Shown here piece by piece: positions 342 to 10,426 of a stretch of 10,955 bases of DNA (the first letter of the stretch is position 1; each line of letters begins with the position of its first letter). The notes under the pieces were generated by a model that saw only the letters and a program-made list of their open reading frames with translations, was not told the DNA's origin and did not search any database. The DNA comes from Candidatus Sumerlaeales bacterium (GTDB lineage Bacteria; Sumerlaeota; Sumerlaeia; Sumerlaeales; Sumerlaeaceae): the NCBI GenBank assembly GCA_038243585.1, contig JBBSQY010000074.1:1-10955 (forward strand). The letters run 5' to 3'. The position numbers and the translations under genes were made by a program.

Positions 342-2855
342 ATGCGAACTGTGTCTGATACAATGAATGGTAAGCGGCATGGCTTTGGGTCCTCGTGGAC
401 GATTTCACTCCAGTGGCTGTTGGCCTTTTGGGCTACGGCGCTGGTCTTTTATTTTGAAGCGCGGGAAGGCCTTGTTCGGTGGCCCTGGCTTTTCGAGCCG
501 GTTACCGGTGGAATTTTCCGGGACAGCGGGTTTCCGGATCCGCGATTTGCGCGGCCCCCATCCGCCGATTCCCCGTTCTCCCCATATTTAGAGATCTTCA
601 GAAACTCTCTCGGTCCGTACAACATCCAATGGGGGAACGCCCCCTGGCGGGAATTGCTGATCGCCCTGGGAGTGCTCTTCGCATACACGGCGCTGGGGTG
701 GCTTTTCCTTTCGGCGTTTCGGATTTTTATGCCGCGCCTGGCAAAAGCCTGCCTGGCTTTGACGATCGGTTGCGCCGCAGTCGGCGTTGGAGGCGAGGCG
801 CTCGCGATGGCGCACCTGCTGACTCGGCCGTGGGTCGGCGCAATGTGGGCATTTCTATTTCTGGCGGCGGGCATTTGCTGGGTTTGGAATTTCCGCACAC
901 GTTCAAAGCCCCGAGCCATCTCCGCCGACACCCGCCTGACCCCGGTGGAACAGGCGCAGCGAGCGCGCGATTGGTTCCGCATGGTGTACTTGGGACCGCA
1001 ATCCGGCGGCGCATGGGTGCTGATGACAGCATACGTCCTGCTGTTTGGACTGATCACCTTTTTTGTCACGCTTCATGCCATTGGCGAGCCGGTAGTCTAT
1101 TGGGATTCGCTAATTTTGTATGTGGGTTATGCCCGGGGCATCTATCTCGAGGGCGGGTTTCCCGTGAAGGTGGTGGGGCAGGTCGGCATGGGGCTGGGGG
1201 CGAACTATCCGCACCTTTATGAAGTGCTGACGGCACAGACCGCGGCCCTGGCTGGGTACTGGAGCGACAGCTTCGCCCAGTTGCTGCCGCCGGTGGCCGT
1301 GACGGCCGCTATGGCGCTGGTCTATTATACGGCACTTGAGCTGTCGCGAAACAGGCTGATTGCCATGGCCGCCGCACTGATTACCCGAGCCGTGCCGTAT
1401 GGGCTGTCTTACACCCAATTCGCCAGCAACTACTCAATCGCGATTCTGTTTACGGCGGCGTTTATTTATCTGGCGGTGCGGCTCGTGCGCGATGGATTGC
1501 CGGGATATAGGAATCTGATGCTCCTCGTTGCCGCAGGTGCGGTTCACATCAACTACCTGATGTGGGGGCTGTGGCCCGTGGCTGCTCTGGCAATTTTAAT
1601 GGCCCATTGGCGCTACCGCCCGCTGGATCGGCGAAATCCAGAGTGGCAGCAATCCGAACCGGGCACGCCCCTGCCGGTTTATCCGCCGGAATTTATGGCG
1701 GAGCAATACCGCCCATCGCTGGCGCGGCTGCTGAAGCGGCGGGATTTCTGGACGTGGACGCTGCTGGCCCTGGCGCTGGCATCGCCCTGGTATGTCCGCA
1801 ATACCATCGTCACCGGAAATCCGGTGTATGCGTTCTACTCCAACGTGTTCCCCAGTAAAAATGTGAATCCCGACGTAATGAGAAGCGCCGAGCAGGAGTG
1901 GATGCTGAACGGGGACGGCCTTGCGAACGTTGGAAATACCTTACCCGAAAAGCTGCTTGGAAGCTGGCTCTTTTTTGTGACGGGAAACCAACACTGGAAG
2001 CTTGCGCCATTTTTCATGGCGTTCGTTATGCCCGGTTTCGTAATATGGGGGCTTTGGTGGCTGGCCCGGGCGCTGCCCGGCCGTCGCCGGCATTCTGCAG
2101 AGTATCTTGCCGGGCCCGACCCCGCCGTTTTCAGGTCCATGGCCGTGGTTGCGGCGCTGTTCCTGCTCCTGTGGTTTTACGCGTACGTCGTCGCCGATTT
2201 TTACCTCTACCAGATCATCATTGTGCTGCCCCTTTTTGGGGTGTTCGCAGCATTTCTGTTCATGTTTTGCCGCGGGCGCGGCGCGCGTATGCTGTTGCAC
2301 GTGCTGGTGCTTGTGACTGCTATTGCGCCGGGGCTGGCGATGTCGATTATGGGTTTTAAACTAAAAAAGACCGGCGTCTACGAAGGCATGGGTTCGCCGC
2401 AGTTTCAGGTTACCGCGCTGCGTAAGTTGTTTATGGATCCAAAAGTTTACTACCGCATGGAGTATGGCGGCGATATGGATATGATCGACCATCTGAACAT
2501 GCTGCCGGATGGAACGGCGGTCCTCACCCATGAGAATCGGCATCTACTGCTCGATCCGAAGCTTGAAATCGTGCATCTGGACGATTGGGAAGTTCAGGCG
2601 GGCTATGGCAAATCCGTGGAAGAACGTGTTCGGATATTGGATGAGTCAGGGGTCGAATACTACCTATATGTCCCGAATGAAGATCGTCATGTGGCGAACA
2701 GTTGGCTGGGGATGGAAGAGCTAATCCGCGACGGCTTTTTTAAACGAGAATATGAAACGCCGACGGCGGATGAGGGCGAGGGCGGGGGCGGGAAAAGCGA
2801 TTCCATCATCCCCAAAGGCAAAAACGTCCTGTACCAGCGGACGCAAAAGAAATAG
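342..2855 (+). CDS. Polytopic membrane protein, probable GT-C fold glycosyltransferase (ArnT/PMT-like)
   Basis: 837-aa ORF with many transmembrane-length hydrophobic segments. Acidic loop motif 'YWDSLILY' followed by 'NYPHLYE' and 'PWYVRNTIVTGNPVY', then a soluble C-terminal domain; this pattern resembles bacterial ArnT/PMT-like proteins. Start is uncertain (ATG 342 or ATG 363; no clear SD). Confidence 0.7.
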   Translation: MRTVSDTMNGKRHGFGSSWTISLQWLLAFWATALVFYFEAREGLVRWPWLFEPVTGGIFRDSGFPDPRFARPPSADSPFSPYLEIFRNSLGPYNIQWGNAPWRELLIALGVLFAYTALGWLFLSAFRIFMPRLAKACLALTIGCAAVGVGGEALAMAHLLTRPWVGAMWAFLFLAAGICWVWNFRTRSKPRAISADTRLTPVEQAQRARDWFRMVYLGPQSGGAWVLMTAYVLLFGLITFFVTLHAIGEPVVYWDSLILYVGYARGIYLEGGFPVKVVGQVGMGLGANYPHLYEVLTAQTAALAGYWSDSFAQLLPPVAVTAAMALVYYTALELSRNRLIAMAAALITRAVPYGLSYTQFASNYSIAILFTAAFIYLAVRLVRDGLPGYRNLMLLVAAGAVHINYLMWGLWPVAALAILMAHWRYRPLDRRNPEWQQSEPGTPLPVYPPEFMAEQYRPSLARLLKRRDFWTWTLLALALASPWYVRNTIVTGNPVYAFYSNVFPSKNVNPDVMRSAEQEWMLNGDGLANVGNTLPEKLLGSWLFFVTGNQHWKLAPFFMAFVMPGFVIWGLWWLARALPGRRRHSAEYLAGPDPAVFRSMAVVAALFLLLWFYAYVVADFYLYQIIIVLPLFGVFAAFLFMFCRGRGARMLLHVLVLVTAIAPGLAMSIMGFKLKKTGVYEGMGSPQFQVTALRKLFMDPKVYYRMEYGGDMDMIDHLNMLPDGTAVLTHENRHLLLDPKLEIVHLDDWEVQAGYGKSVEERVRILDESGVEYYLYVPNEDRHVANSWLGMEELIRDGFFKREYETPTADEGEGGGGKSDSIIPKGKNVLYQRTQKK

Positions 2856-2915: not shown

Positions 2916-3632
2916 TTAGTGCTCTATGTAGTTTTTTGAAATACCCATTTCCTCAGGAGCGTGGAGCCTTAACATTTTCAGGTCCACGTCTGCGGGTACT
3001 TTGGTCTTTGTCATTTTGCTGATGACGACCATGAGGATGATAGATAGCGGCACGGCCCAGATGGCGGGTTGTTCCATCAGGACCCGGGCGAGAGGCGGAA
3101 CCACGCCAGCCTTTCCACTTTTGTCGATTATCATGACTGTCACGATGGTGCCGACGCTGGCGAAACCACCGACGAGCATACCTGTCGCAGCGCCTGGCAT
3201 GGTCAGGCCGCGCCACCAGCTGCCGAGTAGCAATAGCGGGAAGTAGCTGGCTGCGCCAATGGCGAAGGCCCAGCCGACCATTTTGGCGATGTCAAACTGC
3301 TCGACGAAAAGGCCAAGCGCGATGGATACGGCGCCAATGAATACCGTGGCCACCTTGAAGGCGACAAGTCGCGATTCCGGAGAAGAGTTCGGCCGGAAAA
3401 TTCGTCCATAGATATCATGAGCTACCGCGCCGGACATGCTGACGAGGAGGCCGCTGAAGGTAGACATGAACGCGGCGAACGCCCCCGCGCTAGTGATGCC
3501 GGAAAGGATGGCACCTAGAAGCGGCGAACTTAGCGCCGTGGGCAGACTGATGACTGCGGCGTCGGTACGGTTATTGGCGTAGAGGCTCGGCACAACGGCG
3601 CGCGCCAGTGCGCCCCAAACGGGAGTGAACAT
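2916..3632 (-). CDS. actP: ActP-like symporter, C-terminal part (238 aa)
   Basis: Begins at the ATG directly after the TAG, with no obvious SD. Contains the AFAAFMST sodium-site helix and a C-terminal 'MLRLHAPE' tail resembling this subfamily. Confidence 0.7.
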   Translation of the reverse strand: MFTPVWGALARAVVPSLYANNRTDAAVISLPTALSSPLLGAILSGITSAGAFAAFMSTFSGLLVSMSGAVAHDIYGRIFRPNSSPESRLVAFKVATVFIGAVSIALGLFVEQFDIAKMVGWAFAIGAASYFPLLLLGSWWRGLTMPGAATGMLVGGFASVGTIVTVMIIDKSGKAGVVPPLARVLMEQPAIWAVPLSIILMVVISKMTKTKVPADVDLKMLRLHAPEEMGISKNYIEH

Positions 3633-5831
3633 CTAGAAAACGCCAATAAGCACCATCACCCAGAAGGTGGTGCGCTTGGCGGCGCGACCATCTGGATTTG
3701 TGTAGAACCGTACCAGAATATGAGGCAACCCTGCGGTACCGCAGACCAGAGCCATGATGAGGGAATACGTGTAGAGCAGCGGATAGCCCTGTTTGCTGGT
3801 AAAGTCGCCGAAAGGGCGAAGCCAGCGCTGGTTATCCGGGGCGTTGGGAACGTTGGAATTCGCATCGAAAGTGACAGGTGCCGGCTGATTGAATGTCACT
3901 TTTGCCGGAATGGCAGACGCGCCGGCATGAGCCTCCAGCACCTTTACGTACACTGGATGGTCGAGCTGAATGGCTTCCCCCGCGGCGATCTGGCGAGACG
4001 TCGCCGATATGGCGTCACCGGCCTCGCCGGTGTTGTCGCCTAAATTGGTCACCGCGACATCCTGCCGGTCAGCAGGCATTTGTCCGCAGACATTGCTCAA
4101 AGTCAAAGCGCCGCCGCTGCCTTCCGTAGCCGTGAAATAATAAGACGGGGTGGCGGCGGATTTGTCACAGACACCGATGAGGTTCACGGTGCCCCCGCCG
4201 TTGAACACGACGTAGCCGTAGGGAGCTGATGCTCCGATGACAGCTGTGTTTCTCACAGTCATTTCGGGATCCGGATAGTTCCCGTTCACCCCTGTCCAGA
4301 ATGGATAGCCGCCGACGTCGTTGACGCACTCGACCGTGCTGTCGACAACGGTGAGGCCGACGGAGGCGTTGGATATGACATCGGACGCGCCCCGGATATG
4401 GCAGTTGGAAATGGTCGCGTCGGCGCCCGTGGGCAATACAAACACCGTATCATATCCGCCGCCGTTGGCGCCAGGGGCGCTGGTAACAGAGTCCAGAAAA
4501 CAGTTTTCAGCCAGAAAGTTAGCCGCGTCCGGACCGCCTTGCGCCACACCAATTTTCAGTGCTACAGAGTGGCCAGGGCGCGGATCTGTGGGCTCCGCCG
4601 CGTTAATCAGGGTCAAGCTGCGCAGGCTGCAATCCGGCGCGGCGATGACAATAAGTCCGCCATCGCCCGCTTGCGTCCAAGGCACACTGCCCGAGATGCG
4701 GACGGTGTCGCGCGCAACGCCGACAATATGGGTGCGCGGGACCGTGACGGTGACCTGAATATCGTTGGCGATGGTATACTTGCCGGGTTGAACAAGGATT
4801 TTTTTGTCAACGGCGGGATCTGTCGCCGCCGCCAGGGCGTCCTGCAGGGTCGCATACGGCTTGCTGCCATCAGCGGCAACTTCAAAGAGTTGCGCGTCCG
4901 CAGGTATTGCGTTTTGCTGCGCGATGGTTGCGGCTGAAACAGCGATATCATTTAAAAGGCCCGGTGTGGAACCAGCGTTAAGCTGTCCGGGAGTCGGATT
5001 GATTGTAAGCGTCGCGGTCGTGCCGTTGACTCCGGGCGTAAGAAGCGATGGTGCATTCACAGTGAAGTCTGGTTTTCCGCCGATGCTGAAACCTGCAGGC
5101 CCAACACTGTTCAATACGTTAGCAGGCGCGCCGGCAGAACCCTTCATGGTCAGCGTTTTCATTTCCGCGAACTGAGGCTGCGCCGCAGGATTCTTTACGT
5201 TGTCGTTCATACGGTCGCCGTACCAGCCAAACACGCTCATGAGCACGAACACCGGCACCGAGATCGCGAACAGCTTGACCCAGTATTGAAATGCCTGTAC
5301 GAAAGTGATGCCCTTCATGCCACCGATGGCCACATTAAATGTAATGACTGCGCCTACAACCACAATGCCGACCCAGTAGGGCCAGTCCATAATCTCGCCC
5401 ATGACCACCCCCGCGCCCTTCATCTGGGGCATGGTGTAGAAAAAGCCGATGAAAAGCACAAAGGTCACTGCGATCTTCCGGAAAAGGGGGCTGTCAAAGC
5501 GGCCTTCTGCAAAATCAGGAATTGTATAAGCCCCGAAGCGGCGCAGAGGTCCGGCGATAAACAGAAGCAAAAAGAGATAGCCGGCAGCATAGCAGACGGG
5601 ATACCAAAGCGTATCATAGCCATAACGCATGACCAGGCCGGCAACGCCCATAAAGCTGGCGGCGCTGAGGTATTCTCCGCTGATGGCGCCCGCGTTCATG
5701 CCGACGCCGACTGAGCGGGAGGCCACAAAGAAATCTGACGCGGTGCTGGAGCGACGTGTTGTCCAGATACCCAGACCAACCGTAGTGAGAATGATGAAAA
5801 TGACGAACGCGAGGGGGATAAACTCGATCAT
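3633..5831 (-). CDS. actP: ActP-like symporter, N-terminal part (732 aa) including the inserted pectinesterase-like domain
   Basis: ATG overlaps the upstream gene stop (TAATG). About six N-terminal TM segments, a long soluble insert, then GTAGLPHILVRFYT. Ends within a hydrophobic segment at LIGVF*. Confidence 0.75.
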   Translation of the reverse strand: MIEFIPLAFVIFIILTTVGLGIWTTRRSSTASDFFVASRSVGVGMNAGAISGEYLSAASFMGVAGLVMRYGYDTLWYPVCYAAGYLFLLLFIAGPLRRFGAYTIPDFAEGRFDSPLFRKIAVTFVLFIGFFYTMPQMKGAGVVMGEIMDWPYWVGIVVVGAVITFNVAIGGMKGITFVQAFQYWVKLFAISVPVFVLMSVFGWYGDRMNDNVKNPAAQPQFAEMKTLTMKGSAGAPANVLNSVGPAGFSIGGKPDFTVNAPSLLTPGVNGTTATLTINPTPGQLNAGSTPGLLNDIAVSAATIAQQNAIPADAQLFEVAADGSKPYATLQDALAAATDPAVDKKILVQPGKYTIANDIQVTVTVPRTHIVGVARDTVRISGSVPWTQAGDGGLIVIAAPDCSLRSLTLINAAEPTDPRPGHSVALKIGVAQGGPDAANFLAENCFLDSVTSAPGANGGGYDTVFVLPTGADATISNCHIRGASDVISNASVGLTVVDSTVECVNDVGGYPFWTGVNGNYPDPEMTVRNTAVIGASAPYGYVVFNGGGTVNLIGVCDKSAATPSYYFTATEGSGGALTLSNVCGQMPADRQDVAVTNLGDNTGEAGDAISATSRQIAAGEAIQLDHPVYVKVLEAHAGASAIPAKVTFNQPAPVTFDANSNVPNAPDNQRWLRPFGDFTSKQGYPLLYTYSLIMALVCGTAGLPHILVRFYTNPDGRAAKRTTFWVMVLIGVF
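4082..4886 (-). other. Inserted pectin-lyase-like parallel beta-helix domain (pectinesterase/CE8-like) within the symporter
   Basis: Motifs in the order expected for CE8: VAADGSKPYATLQDALAAA, ILVQPGKY, IVGVARDTVRI, LRSLTLIN, SVALKI, ENCFL, YDTVF, NCHIRGASDVI. Confidence 0.75.
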
Positions 5832-6184
5832 TATCTGTCGCCCTCCCCGTTGACGACGTTTGTTGGAGCGGCTGTTTCCTTACGCATGGTTGCGGTTATA
5901 TCAGATTCAATCTCATTGCTCCGGCGGATAAACCACCAGCTCAATATCCAGGTGATAGGATAGAACAAAACGGCCAGGAAAAACCACGTAGCCGTAAACC
6001 CAAACATTGGCATGTTTGCGACTTCCGGTAAAAAGTAATTTACGAGAGGCAGGCCAAACAGCATGACCAGAAAGATAGCGGCAATTTTCAGGCTGAGACT
6101 CATCTGACGGCGCATTACGGAATCGGCCAGGCTGCGCTGATCGTTCGGGTGCGAGTGGATGTTTTGTTCCAGGCGTGTTTGCAA
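5831..6184 (-). CDS. DUF485 / YjcH-like small membrane protein, the usual ActP partner
   Basis: 117 aa, two TM segments, 'MRRQMSLSL' N-terminal motif. TTG start with GGAGG 8 nt upstream. Translationally coupled to the symporter through TAATG, matching the known yjcH-actP arrangement. Confidence 0.85.
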   Translation of the reverse strand: MQTRLEQNIHSHPNDQRSLADSVMRRQMSLSLKIAAIFLVMLFGLPLVNYFLPEVANMPMFGFTATWFFLAVLFYPITWILSWWFIRRSNEIESDITATMRKETAAPTNVVNGEGDR

Positions 6185-6334: not shown

Positions 6335-7531
6335 TCAGCCGGCTATAGGCAGATCATTTTTCCGAACAAGCACGTTAGCACCCTGGACGGGGCGGGTGGC
6401 GTAGATGGTCGCCTCGAGGCCAGTCCGTTTGAGATAAGCCGACGCCATCAGAGCCTTAAATTTGTCGACATTGTCTAACGGGACAAGTGCAACGGCACAG
6501 CCGCCGAAGCCGCCGCCGGTCATGCGACAGCCGTAGGCGAGGCCGCTGTCCCTCGCAATGTCGACGATCGTGTCCAGTTGTTCGCACGATACTTCATAAT
6601 CATCGCGCAGGCTGGCATGAGATTGATAAAGCGCCTTGCCCGCGGTATCCCAATCGCTGGCTTTCAGCGCCTTTACGAACTGCCGGACCCGCTCGTTTTC
6701 CGTCAAGTTATGCTTTACCCGTTTGCGAGTAATATCCGGCAGGGCAGCAGCGTGGCGGTCAAAAATTTCCTGCGGCACATGACGCAGGGTAGGATAGTTA
6801 TCGCCGGATAATTCGCACAGCAGGCGCAGACCCTCTTCACACTCCAGCCGGCGACGGTTAAAGTCGCTGGAGCGAAGTTCGCGGGATTTGTTGGAATTAA
6901 TAACCACGATGACGGCGCCGTCCGGATCAAAGGGAACCGTCTCGTAATCAAGAGTATGGCAATCGAGAAAAAGTGCGCTCGCATCTGCCCCTAGAGCCGA
7001 TGCGAATTGATCCATGATACCGCATCGCACGCCGACAAAATCGCTGTGTTCCGCAGCCTGAGCCAGCAGTGCGATTTCCTTCGCAGACAGCCCGGCGCCG
7101 CAAACTTCGTTGAGCAGCGTAGCAGCGCACACTTCAAAAGCGGCGGATGAGCTAAGCCCCGCGCCCAGGGGCACGTCACCGTTTATGGCCACATCCAGTG
7201 CTGGTGGATGGTGGCCGCGCAGATTAAATTGCTCGCACACCGCGAGCCAGTAACTATACCATTTCACGCCTTCCGGGCGGGGTAGCGCGTCAGCCGGGTC
7301 GTAGCTGAAAGCTTCGTCGTAATTGACAGAATGCAGACGAGTTTCCTCTGCGTCCGCTGGCCGAGCCGCCATCTTTATTTCGTATTCAATAGCTGCCGGC
7401 AGCACAAATCCGCCGTTGTAGTCGGTGTGCTCCCCTATAAGGTTGATACGACCCGGAGCCCGGGCGATTAGTGTAGGCTGGGTTTTAAAGGCTGACTCAA
7501 AGCTTTGTGTAATCGAGGCATCGGTAATCAT
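6335..7531 (-). CDS. galK: Galactokinase
   Basis: Galactokinase signature GRINLIGEHTDY, GHMP motif PLGAGLSSSA, CGIMDQ and RMTGGGFGG; 398 aa. Confidence 0.97.
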   Translation of the reverse strand: MITDASITQSFESAFKTQPTLIARAPGRINLIGEHTDYNGGFVLPAAIEYEIKMAARPADAEETRLHSVNYDEAFSYDPADALPRPEGVKWYSYWLAVCEQFNLRGHHPPALDVAINGDVPLGAGLSSSAAFEVCAATLLNEVCGAGLSAKEIALLAQAAEHSDFVGVRCGIMDQFASALGADASALFLDCHTLDYETVPFDPDGAVIVVINSNKSRELRSSDFNRRRLECEEGLRLLCELSGDNYPTLRHVPQEIFDRHAAALPDITRKRVKHNLTENERVRQFVKALKASDWDTAGKALYQSHASLRDDYEVSCEQLDTIVDIARDSGLAYGCRMTGGGFGGCAVALVPLDNVDKFKALMASAYLKRTGLEATIYATRPVQGANVLVRKNDLPIAG

Positions 7532-7580: not shown

Positions 7581-7610
7581 CTTCAATCGGGATGGTTGTG
7601 CTACTTCATG
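7581..7610 (-). repeat. Degenerate GTAG-type REP copy overlapping the galT stop codon
   Basis: Minus strand CATGAAGTAGCACAACCATCCCGATTG aligns without gaps to CATGAAGTAGCATAGGCGTCCCGCCTG (10565-10539). The first 12 nt are identical and TCCCG is conserved. Confidence 0.55.
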
Positions 7611-8641
7611 TTGAAATGAGTTTCTGATAACTCCCGCAGGCGCTGGGCGGCGTGTTCCGCGGTAATATCGCGCTGAGGCATGGCAAGCATCTCAAAGCCC
7701 ACCATGAATTTCTGGACCGTTGACGACCGCAGCAGCGGCGGATAGAAGTGCGCATGCATGTGCCAGTGAGGATGCTTTTGTCCATCCGTCGGCGCCTGGT
7801 GGAAACCCATAGTGTAGGGGAATGACACGTTAAATAGATTGTCGTAGCGTACGGTCAGCCGCTTCATAATATCCGCCAGCGCCCGCTCGTCGTCGGCCGT
7901 CATGTCTGCCATGGAAGCGATGGGCCGTCGGGGGGCGACCAATGTTTCAAAAGGCCATTTTGCCCAGAAAGGAACAACGGCAGCCCACAGGTCATTGCTG
8001 CAGATCACGCGCTCGTCGCGATCAAGTTCGGCGGCCAGATAATCCTGGAGCAGCGTATGTCCGCGGCTGGCGAAGTACTCCAGAAGGCGTTCATTTTCCC
8101 GCATGGATTCAAACGGAACCGTTTCCGTAGCCCAAATCTGGCCATGAGGATGGGGATTGCTGCATCCCATTATGGCACCCTTGTTTTCGAAAATCTGAAC
8201 GTACTGCACAAAATCCACAGCTCCGAGTTCCAGATACTGCTCTTTCCACAGGCGAACCACCCGCTCGATTGAAGGCACATCCATTTCCGCCACCGTCAGA
8301 TCATGGCGGGGCGAAAAGCAGATCACTCGACATATGCCGCGCTCTGCTTGCGCATTAAAAAGTGCGCTGTCCGGCATTTCGAGGCGCGGCGTATCTGGCA
8401 TAAGCGCGGCGAAATCGTTTGTAAAAAGAAAGGTCGAATCGTAATTCGGATTTGTGTCGCCGTCTGCCCGTTTATTACCGGGACAAAGGTAACATTTAGG
8501 ATCGTAGGCCGGGCGGTTGTCCGGGGACAGATCCTCCACTTTGCCCTGCCAGGGGCGGTTCAGCCGGTGAGGACTGACCAGTACCCATTCTCCAGTAAGG
8601 GGATTGAGGCGGCGATGAGGGGTTTTAAAGATGTCGTCCAT
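7601..8641 (-). CDS. galT: Galactose-1-phosphate uridylyltransferase
   Basis: [31 protein letters not shown], catalytic [12 protein letters not shown] and [12 protein letters not shown] 8641 ([11 protein letters not shown]) is preferred over GTG 8677 because it fits typical GalT N-termini. Confidence 0.97.
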
Positions 8642-8738
8642 ACTGGTCTTTTCCACGTGACAAGTAAAAGAATTCACCAGAGAGATGCTTTTTACAAACT
8701 AGCATACTCATTGCATCTGTGTAAACCTACCGCTCAGC

Positions 8739-8763: not shown

Positions 8764-8818
8764 TAAACGACGCGAATCGCCTGTGTCGTTTTAAATTTTG
8801 ATCCAGAGGTTAACCCTA

Positions 8819-10426
8819 TTGTCTTACCTTAAAAACGCGCCCGGTGCACTGGCTGTTGTCTTTATTTCCTACGCAGCCATTGCCGGCGGTGCTCCTTCCA
8901 CTGCCGCTCCGGATGCTAATGCTTCCAGCGGTTCACTAACCACCTACACCAACCCTTTTGGCTTCTCCATTGCCGATCCCTTTGTGCTTCAGGATGGTGA
9001 TACGTATTATATGTACGGAACCACGGACGCCGTGGTGGGGAGAGGGTTTGATGTTTACAAATCCACAAACCTGGCAGACTGGACCCGTGCCGCCAAGTGC
9101 TACGCTCCGACCGACGATTCCTGGGGCGGGTATAACTTCTGGGCACCGGAGGTGGTTAAAAAAGACGGCTATTATTATATGCACTATACGGTCTACAGCA
9201 GCAAAGAAGCCCGTCGAAACATTTTGGTGGCTCGGTCTGAATCGCCCGAAGGGCCGTTCATCGATTACGCGGGTCCTCTGTTTCCAGACAATAGCATCAT
9301 CGACAGCCACATCTATCATGACACAAAATCGGGCGACTACTTTATCTACGCTTCGCCGGAACGAGAGCCGCCGTCGCGGATCCTGGGCGCAAAAATCTCC
9401 CCCGATTTTAAACAATTAATGACATCGCCCACGGAATGCCTCGCAGCGGAATTCGGATGGGAGGATTTGTGGATCGAAGGACCTATCATCCACGAGCGCA
9501 ATGGCACGCTTTATATGCTCTATAGTGGTGGCGCGTGGTGGGAGTCGGAATATTCCCTTGGTTGCGCCACCGCACAATCCCCCCTGGGCCCATGGACGAA
9601 ATACGAATCAAACCCCGTGTTGAAAAACAATGAAACCGTTGACGGTCCCGGCCATAACGGACTGGCGTGGTCGCCGGATGGGACCGAGTTGTTCCTGGTC
9701 TATCACACCCACGCCGCCGACTGGACTGCCCGGCGCGTGGCGGCGCTGGACCGAATTCTATTTGAGAAGGCGGAGTCAGGCCCGGATGTGCTCACGATTC
9801 CGGGTGCGCCGTCGTCTGCTCCCCAGCCCCTTCCATCCGGGGCCGCGCCTCGGCAGATCGCTAAATCAGACGATTTCGATGGCGACAACGTCGATCTGAG
9901 CCAATGGCACATCTACTCTAACTACCCGGACAACTGGAAGCAGGCCAGAGGCGCGCTTCACATTTCTGCGGTTGATGGAGATTTCTGGCGGAGTCACGAT
10001 GACGGCCAAAATCTATTTCTCCAGCTTATGCCCACCGGCGATTTTGATATAGAAACCAGCCTGACCATGGACGCGACCCGCGAGAATGAACAGGCGTTTT
10101 TGACTATATGGGGTGATGAAGACAACCACATCATTTTCTCATCCGTGCATCTGAATGGGCCCCGATTTGCCGTGACCAGGGAGAAAAAAGGCAAGGCCGA
10201 CACCGCTTTATCTAACAATGAATTCGGCCAACAGGTTTGCCTTCGCATTGAAAAGCGCGGCGAGACTTTACAGTTTTTCGCGAGCGAGGACGGAAACACC
10301 TGGAAGTCCGTCGGGCGGGAATCGTCTCTAAAAAACCTGCACCCAAAATACGTTGGAGTAGGCGCATGGTCTCCCGGAAACGACCGAAAGACGACAGCGC
10401 GATTTGACTGGTTCCGGGTGAAGTAA
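8819..10426 (+). CDS. Secreted family 43 glycoside hydrolase with a C-terminal beta-sandwich (ConA-like) domain
   Basis: NP...IADP (base), WAPEV, IIDSH (pKa modulator), IEGP (acid), YSG, NPVL, GPGHN and YH motifs. A Pro-rich linker leads to an SDDFDG...FDWFRV beta-sandwich. Signal-peptide-like N-terminus. TTG 8819 has AGAGGT (8805-8810) upstream; the track start TTG 8798 is the alternative. Confidence 0.92.
   Translation: MSYLKNAPGALAVVFISYAAIAGGAPSTAAPDANASSGSLTTYTNPFGFSIADPFVLQDGDTYYMYGTTDAVVGRGFDVYKSTNLADWTRAAKCYAPTDDSWGGYNFWAPEVVKKDGYYYMHYTVYSSKEARRNILVARSESPEGPFIDYAGPLFPDNSIIDSHIYHDTKSGDYFIYASPEREPPSRILGAKISPDFKQLMTSPTECLAAEFGWEDLWIEGPIIHERNGTLYMLYSGGAWWESEYSLGCATAQSPLGPWTKYESNPVLKNNETVDGPGHNGLAWSPDGTELFLVYHTHAADWTARRVAALDRILFEKAESGPDVLTIPGAPSSAPQPLPSGAAPRQIAKSDDFDGDNVDLSQWHIYSNYPDNWKQARGALHISAVDGDFWRSHDDGQNLFLQLMPTGDFDIETSLTMDATRENEQAFLTIWGDEDNHIIFSSVHLNGPRFAVTREKKGKADTALSNNEFGQQVCLRIEKRGETLQFFASEDGNTWKSVGRESSLKNLHPKYVGVGAWSPGNDRKTTARFDWFRVK

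Follow-up and report, generated by a model that had tools for sequence, protein, structure and literature searches.

How does a symporter gene come to carry, between two of its transmembrane helices, a soluble region of 474 residues? The question is raised by contig JBBSQY010000074.1 of a Candidatus Sumerlaeales bacterium (assembly GCA_038243585.1), analysed here over its entire length of 10,955 bases (the window), one of the 99 contigs of a 3.43-Mb metagenome-assembled genome (MAG; 89.7% complete, 3.6% contamination). A gene on its reverse strand encodes an ActP-like member of the SSS family of transporters, and an earlier note, made from the letters of the DNA, had described this protein as a symporter with a ~475-residue loop insertion that holds a pectinesterase-like β-helix. 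The explanation that we prefer, and to which we would give roughly an even chance (about 0.5), is that a domain resembling the enzymes of carbohydrate esterase family 8 (CE8) was grafted into a loop between the sixth and seventh transmembrane helices (TM6 and TM7), where it lies nested within an older domain, has been retained by selection and is most likely an enzyme still.

The soluble region (residues 207–680, window positions 3792–5213, reverse strand) consists of 474 residues, free of stops, between '...VFGWYG' and 'WLRPFGDFTSK...'. The uninterrupted in-frame stretch reported earlier is therefore there, its limits of 3790–5215 needing correction for a two-base frame offset. Only part of it is peculiar to this gene. 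When 5.8 billion clustered proteins were searched with the loop region, nine relatives of 603–680 amino acids (aa) came up besides the window's own open reading frame (ORF), and in each of them '...FG.YG' and 'NVPNAP..W.RPFG.FTSK' are separated by a loop of ~150 aa that lacks the middle part. In the nearest of them (P0003, 649 aa) a nine-residue Pro/Gly linker stands at the site of the 331 residues found here, so that the net gain is 322 aa; and orthologues in two same-genus and two same-family genomes (G001, G002, G008 and G009) skip residues ~289–608, those from the same genus being open frames of 643 and 655 aa. The supposed ~475-aa insertion is thus reduced to residues 282–612, the flanking ~150 aa being common to all nine relatives. 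These relatives (P0003–P0011, from loci titled Candidatus Sumerlaeales/Sumerlaeaceae, Armatimonadota and Isosphaeraceae) are 62–86% identical to the present symporter outside the insert and have the same loop domain, the same motif ahead of TM7 and the same DUF485 partner gene; they differ in their length, in the linker of about nine residues and in having Tyr where the deposited gene has TAG. Among named transporter relatives, those titled Candidatus Sumerlaeales and Sumerlaeaceae come nearest, followed by Armatimonadota, Isosphaeraceae and Verrucomicrobia.

When the segment from TM6 to TM7 was folded with AlphaFold2 (AF2) from an alignment that combined relatives of the loop with relatives of the insert (mean pLDDT 75.7), host β strands were placed on both sides (model residues 42–94, pLDDT mostly 75–88, and 430–472), and low-confidence linkers (98–116 and 405–426) bracketed a confident β-helix. 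As modelled, the loop is a domain nested within a domain, with a 331-aa unit inside a family-typical β domain of ~150 aa, and we regard this architecture as established. An Atlas feature search gave a lead only to the fold of the host domain (0.79), and a wide VIA search for it was filled by the β-helix. The flanks of positions 3996 and 4988 contain no direct or inverted repeats of the kind that would mark a mobile element.

What, then, is the 331-residue unit? Folded alone, it is modelled as all-β (pLDDT 77, pTM 0.79), with most of the core above pLDDT 90, and in a Foldseek comparison of this model with the Protein Data Bank (PDB) the first 12 ranks are all pectin methylesterases (PMEs). VIA-align gave twelve CE8 entries Z-scores of 25.3–28.3 (root mean square deviation 2.5–3.5 Å, 246–277 residues aligned), the next fold reaching 23.3, and a wide VIA search that was independent of Foldseek again put CE8 entries at ranks 1–6 (Z 24.2–26.5). 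A profile built from the insert and 13 homologues, when run against the PDB, found carrot PME (1gq8, E 1.2e-16) and Dickeya PemA (1qjv, E 1.5e-16). The insert is accordingly predicted to be a right-handed β-helix closest to solved CE8 structures, much as the earlier note had foreseen from its CE8 motifs, and the fold appears whether the insert or the whole TM6–loop–TM7 segment is modelled. With the PMEs of carrot, tomato (1xg2) and Dickeya, and with YbhC of E. coli (3grh), it shares the right-handed β-helix, an N-terminal cap motif and the catalytic Asp columns; identity is 15–21%, and those proteins are secreted or lipid-anchored whereas the insert is embedded in a transporter loop.

Could the fusion have been made by the assembler, through the misjoining of a fragment of a β-helix gene into a transporter gene? 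That the window makes up an entire contig, in a MAG of 99 contigs with some contamination, and that the GC content of the insert (0.599) is slightly above that of its flanks (0.55–0.59), might encourage such a view. Both junctions are in frame, however, and contigs from three studies cover the fusion. In run X1, a soil metagenome that is possibly the source of the record, an independently assembled contig of 2542 bases spans all of 3400–5400 with three differences; in run X2, a rock metagenome from another study, one of several near-identical short contigs crosses the N-side junction (4895–5045); and in run X3, a microbial mat from a third study, contigs of ~92% identity include one that crosses the N-side junction as a diverged variant (4762–5400) and one inside the insert (4090–4779). 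No joint skipping the insert was reported among the contigs of these runs. A chimera is therefore rejected as very improbable.

The X3 contigs also bear on how the insert has evolved. Among the 30 differences listed for the insert contig, out of 51, 21 fall on third codon positions (binomial P 4e-5), and 20 of the 28 codons changed by listed differences are synonymous. Insert and host part have diverged to a similar extent (51/690 and 13/149, respectively), and GC content at third codon positions is much the same, 0.668 for the insert and 0.69 for its flanks. Because of this third-position bias, the synonymous changes, the like divergence and the matching GC content, we conclude that the fusion predates the split of the record and X3 lineages and is under purifying selection. 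To judge from these contigs it is real DNA, inherited and kept by selection.

A number of observations weigh against the proposed explanation, some bearing on the gene and others on the activity of its product. To take the gene first, X1, possibly the source sample, is the only run to bridge the C-side junction by at least 31 letters; the codon counts given above rest on 30 of 51 differences; and the deposited sequence has a premature stop, the TAG at codon 733. From this last point it might be supposed that illegitimate recombination left the insertion as a passenger, tolerated or harmful, in a gene becoming a pseudogene, of which the TAG, lying within a transmembrane helix, would be the first visible lesion. 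TAG is after all a normal stop in this genome, where it terminates 421 of the 1679 long ORFs and the frame then stays open for a median of 15 codons, just as it does after TAA and TGA, and the architecture is restricted to one lineage. Nevertheless, at 3633 the X1 and X3 contigs read A for C, so that the codon becomes TAT (Tyr); the 331 codons of the insert contain neither stop nor frameshift; its listed changes between lineages ~92% identical are mostly synonymous, and it diverges equally with its host; and a search of the MAG with this symporter as query found no second copy of the subfamily. A passenger thus seems improbable.

Nor do we think that the TAG is decoded, whether by pyrrolysine, by suppression or through an alternative code, to give a 971-aa protein from the deposited sequence. 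The frame does continue perfectly past it, but the residue is Tyr in relatives and the codon is TAT in other assemblies; and as TAG behaves genome-wide as an ordinary stop, it is not recoded here, an idea that we reject as scarcely credible. The TAG is best taken as a record-specific or minor allele, or as a consensus error. The 971-aa product envisaged in the earlier note accordingly exists only as a read-through of the record, whereas other assemblies, from the same organism or a related one, have TAT at this codon. Record and X1 contig differ at 3633, 5241 and 5253, all of them third codon positions, and these differences look like those of co-existing strains merged, or chosen between, by the binner.

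As to activity, profile alignment puts Asp461 and Asp484 of the insert in the columns of the two catalytic Asp residues of CE8 enzymes (Table 1). The first of these is the residue mutated in entry 2nsp (PemA D178A), and of the 12 homologues covering each column, 11 keep the Asp. Around this pair there is less agreement. In CE8 enzymes two glutamines form the oxyanion hole, and these (in 'QAVAL' and 'QD') are replaced here by His421 and Tyr460, although both are present in three homologues of the insert (P0018, P0021 and P0023). An extra loop of 7–10 residues precedes Asp461. A counterpart of the active-site Arg/Trp motif ('GRPW') was not located by the profile alignments, which stop short of it, and the candidate segment 'ASAPYGYVVF' shows no evident Arg. 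Of the Pfam pattern expected from the earlier note, PF00474 is indeed split around the loop, but the insert alone scores 14.7 bits (E 0.013) on PF01095, under the cut-off of 27 that 7 of its 15 homologues pass. Genes for PF01095, GH28 and pectate-lyase (PF00544) proteins were looked for in the 89.7%-complete MAG and none was found, which makes pectin improbable as the substrate. CE8 enzymes, moreover, release methanol and not a monocarboxylate, so that the notion of an esterase feeding ActP is left without direct support. Finally, galK (6335–7531), galT (7601–8677) and a GH43 gene with a β-xylosidase-type C-domain (8798–10426), which neighbour the transporter pair in the window, do not neighbour its orthologues in same-genus genomes, and therefore say little about the substrate.

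On this alignment the insert is a CE8-like domain that retains the acid pair and whose pocket has been remodelled. Might it have given up catalysis? It is possible, though we think it rather doubtful, that the β-helix is a non-catalytic glycan-binding or envelope-anchoring module, which keeps polymeric substrate, or envelope polysaccharide of the cell itself, close to the transporter and hydrolyses nothing. The replacement of both oxyanion glutamines, and the failure to find the arginine or, in the MAG, pectinolytic genes, would suit a binding module; right-handed β-helices act also as adhesins and as the receptor binders of tailspikes (PfbA and tailspikes reach Z 21–22 with this insert); and relatives in the same phylum occur in large ORFs with tail-fibre-like N-terminal segments. 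A pure binder would, however, have no reason to keep the catalytic Asp columns, as the insert and nearly all of the covering homologues do, and CE8 enzymes clearly exceed adhesins and tailspikes in Z. We incline, at slightly better than even odds, to a β-helix that is still an enzyme.

How might a graft of this kind have come about, and what might it do? We suggest that the outer loop of the host subfamily was already a small β-rich domain before the insertion, and that a Pro/Gly-rich surface loop of this domain then received the mature part of a secreted CE8-like β-helix protein, with two flexible linkers of ~20 residues now tethering the β-helix over the transporter's outer face. The conserved Asp pair most likely still acts there on a glycan, esterified or acidic, at the surface of the membrane, with a substrate probably other than classic pectin, and the tether would hold the activity, or captured substrate, beside the uptake site. 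A passage of a paper on Sumerlaeota portrays them as polysaccharide scavengers with acetate metabolism (PMC8092238). The more specific proposal, that an active esterase or depolymerase attacks a polymer on the outer face of the cytoplasmic membrane and hands a small carboxylate product, or a captured substrate, directly to its own symporter, we consider unlikely; if true, it would give a single-polypeptide 'cleave-and-import' secondary transporter, in which a secreted enzyme had been grafted into the loop of a transporter.

When 1.84 billion representatives were scanned exhaustively with HMMER, just 15 clusters related to the insert were found (P0012–P0026), which points to a rare and divergent CE8-like family with an altered active site; PF00474 is absent from all of them. 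The best (P0012, E 5e-42, 35% identity) is a stand-alone protein of 339 aa whose residues 28–324 align to insert residues 24–325, and because the alignment runs almost from end to end, the insert corresponds to a complete small protein in its mature form. Several of the homologues start with N-termini that resemble signal peptides, as judged by eye. As a group they are 24–42% identical to the insert and share with it the motifs 'YxTIQxAL..DP..K.I.V.PG.Y', 'THI.G', 'CS', 'D..W' and 'SD(V/I)'; unlike it, they occur free or as parts of large ORFs whose N-terminal segments look tail-fibre-like. Within the phylum the family occurs in 26 of 75 genomes (this one included), mostly in such large ORFs. 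Neither a donor nor a paralogue of the insert was found in its own genome, and the closest match in the phylum, at only 108.9 bits, is too weak to point to a donor. A tblastn search with the insert of 50,697 phage records, made with a phage origin in mind, gave no match.

Some incidental features of the CE8-like family may be mentioned here. It is expanded in some genomes of the phylum, with nine matches in G013 and 11 in G049, and a single open frame at L013:1–2871 holds two tandem copies. The tail-fibre-like N-terminal segments are exemplified by '...LTGLADDDHTNYH'.

Turning to the transporter, Pfam SSF (PF00474) matches residues 34–206 with model positions 1–174 and the downstream ORF with positions 278–406, at 121.4 bits (N-terminal part, in two stretches) and 77.6 bits (C-terminal part) against a gathering cut-off of 22.8, which makes it a member of the SSS family (TC 2.A.21). 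The two membrane parts are 79–80% and 81% identical, respectively, to those of same-genus orthologues. Its top NCBIfam models are those of the VC_2705 subfamily (TIGR03648; 188.1 and 103.2 bits, cut-off 320.75), MctC (NF058657; 162.5 and 87.1 bits, cut-off 670) and ActP (TIGR02711; 119 and 73 bits, cut-off 1099), all scores being lowered by the use of two separate ORFs that include the insert. The protein is filed as ActP-like, and not as ActP, because these equivalog cut-offs were not reached; the ActP-like transporter recognized in the earlier note is in that sense upheld. The DUF485 gene immediately upstream overlaps the symporter ATG with its stop by one base, and the pairing is kept in the same-genus and same-family relatives examined, synteny with same-genus genomes being limited to this pair. 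An upstream DUF485/YjcH-like gene, the SSF fold and the presence in the genome of an acetyl-CoA synthetase of the AMP-forming type (Acs; here 1018 bits, above its cut-off) are common to this system, to ActP of E. coli (YjcG, with YjcH) and to MctC of Corynebacterium glutamicum; in those two the TM6–TM7 loop is short, as against ~475 aa, and scores here are far under their equivalog cut-offs. The gene would thus encode a putative cation:monocarboxylate symporter of the ActP/MctC type, translationally coupled to its DUF485 partner. Three further SSF genes are present in the MAG. SSS transporters of this kind are described, in the part of a review that deals with them, as having 500–700 aa and 13 transmembrane helices (PMC7918813).

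On which side of the membrane does the loop lie? The hydropathy cores (TM2 being missed by a simple threshold) and the K/R-rich loops at 96–122 and 702–729 fit a topology with the N-terminus outside, and the outer side is also where a passage of the same review puts the SSS N-terminus (PMC7918813). From the SSS topology, the positive-inside pattern and the signal-peptide-like starts of free homologues, the TM6–TM7 loop probably faces outward, in keeping with the extracytoplasmic position given to it earlier.

Table 1. Features of the symporter locus, in window coordinates; residue numbers are those of the read-through product
Feature	Position	Strand	Basis or remark
DUF485 (YjcH-like) small membrane protein gene, upstream of symporter	5831..6184	-	PF04341, 34 bits (cut-off 28)
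Whole symporter gene as read-through	2916..5831	-	971 codons + stop
Upstream ORF of symporter	3633-5831	-	732 aa, terminates in TAG
Downstream ORF of symporter, same frame as upstream ORF	2916-3632	-	238 aa
N-terminal membrane part, residues 1-205, TM1-TM6	5216..5831	-	SSS family homology, SSF model positions 1-174, hydropathy, K/R distribution
N-half of family-typical loop domain, residues 206-281	4989..5215	-	Aligned in 9/9 relatives
Nested insertion peculiar to this lineage, residues 282-612, 331 aa including the two linkers	3996..4988	-	No counterpart in 9/9 database relatives
Predicted CE8-like right-handed β-helix core, ~residues 309-580	4092..4907	-	AF2, Foldseek, VIA, profile search
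Codon of Asp461, column of first CE8 catalytic Asp ('QD' Asp)	4449..4451	-	Profile alignment to 1gq8, 1qjv, 2nsp
Codon of Asp484, column of second CE8 catalytic Asp ('DFIFG' Asp)	4380..4382	-	Profile alignment to 1gq8, 1qjv
C-half of family-typical loop domain, residues 613-680	3792..3995	-	Ends in 'NVPNAP..W.RPFG.FTSK' before TM7
C-terminal membrane part, TM7 onwards, residues 681-971	2916..3791	-	SSF model positions 278-406
In-frame TAG, codon 733, within transmembrane helix	3633..3635	-	Tyr in 9/9 relatives

Has a comparable fusion been seen before? In a profile search of 5.8 billion clusters (proteins of 80–1341 aa) there were 37 matches, and PF00474 accompanied the β-helix only in the window's own ORF. 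No second symporter with a CE8-like domain was found in the 1.84 and 5.8 billion sequences, in searches limited by word sharing and clustering, for which reason 'not found' is the right wording; the library of 1.84 billion representatives did not return the window's own protein. A longer class (1342–3830 aa only) gave no fused form and is uninformative, and among JGI metagenome contigs 139 stretches fit a pattern, none of which was confirmed. Kinase modules, where SSS proteins have them, sit at the cytoplasmic C-terminus. In the portions of the literature that the search brought up, SSS–sensor-kinase fusions appeared and an SSS/β-helix fusion did not, and the SSS fusions named in the relevant part of the review are with sensor kinases and other signalling domains (GAF and PP2C-type; PMC7918813). 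The statement in the earlier note that no such fusion was known to have been described therefore agrees with the databases and the literature searched. Fusions of the CrbS/MxtR type, as presented there, resemble the present gene in joining an SSS membrane domain covalently to a foreign soluble domain, but what they add are signalling domains, whereas here the domain is nested in an outer loop (PMC7918813).

A large loop between TM6 and TM7 is, by contrast, not unique to this gene. In a survey of loop spans 80 loci were kept, 61 of which have both flanking motifs in one frame (the other 19 were dropped), and the distance from motif to motif, which covers TM6 and the loop, was 97–258 residues in 57 loci, 385–416 in four (L070, L075, L093 and L095) and ~518 in the present gene. 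Eight of the longest loops, these four included, have no match to the β-helix profile (best E 0.11), and because they do not match it, the TM6–TM7 site is taken to be a hot spot for unrelated inserts. The four long loops (L070:7523–8764, L075:714–1961, L093:7523–8677 and L095:7523–8707) are Ala/Leu/Lys-rich and unrelated in sequence to the β-helix, and three of the four records are titled Verrucomicrobia or Verrucomicrobiota. As the conserved motif 'KAP.DSTWLSPFGPLTTKAAKAA' lies in the middle of the span, each of the four has two inserts.

The segment ahead of TM7, 'NVPNAP.N..W.RPFG.FTSK.GYPLLYTYS' (window 3792–3860, and in relatives), is almost invariant across phyla, and this near-invariance suggests that a lid or gate element of functional importance closes the loop domain.

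Secondary transporters are usually seen as bare membrane bundles, the enzymes that prepare their substrates being encoded separately. The present gene offers a natural case in which what appears to be a complete secreted-enzyme fold became nested in an SSS outer loop and was then kept by selection. The LeuT-type fold can evidently accommodate a 330-residue domain in its TM6–TM7 loop, at a site that in this subfamily accepts unrelated inserts in several phyla. The fusion lets one ask whether a tethered enzyme or binding module improves the scavenging of polymer-derived acids, and its junctions may serve as a ready template for engineering transporter–enzyme fusions.

Two minor observations remain. 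In the loop survey, L071, L083 and L093 are titled 'uncultured Bifidobacterium sp.', though their symporters are closest to those of the Verrucomicrobia type, and the titles look doubtful. In the window itself, an ORF of 837 aa (342–2855, forward strand) has no Pfam or NCBIfam match, and an ESM Atlas feature search (0.99 against PMT_2 / DUF8201 clusters) suggests that it encodes a membrane glycosyltransferase of the GT-C type, possibly a link to envelope glycan beside the transporter.

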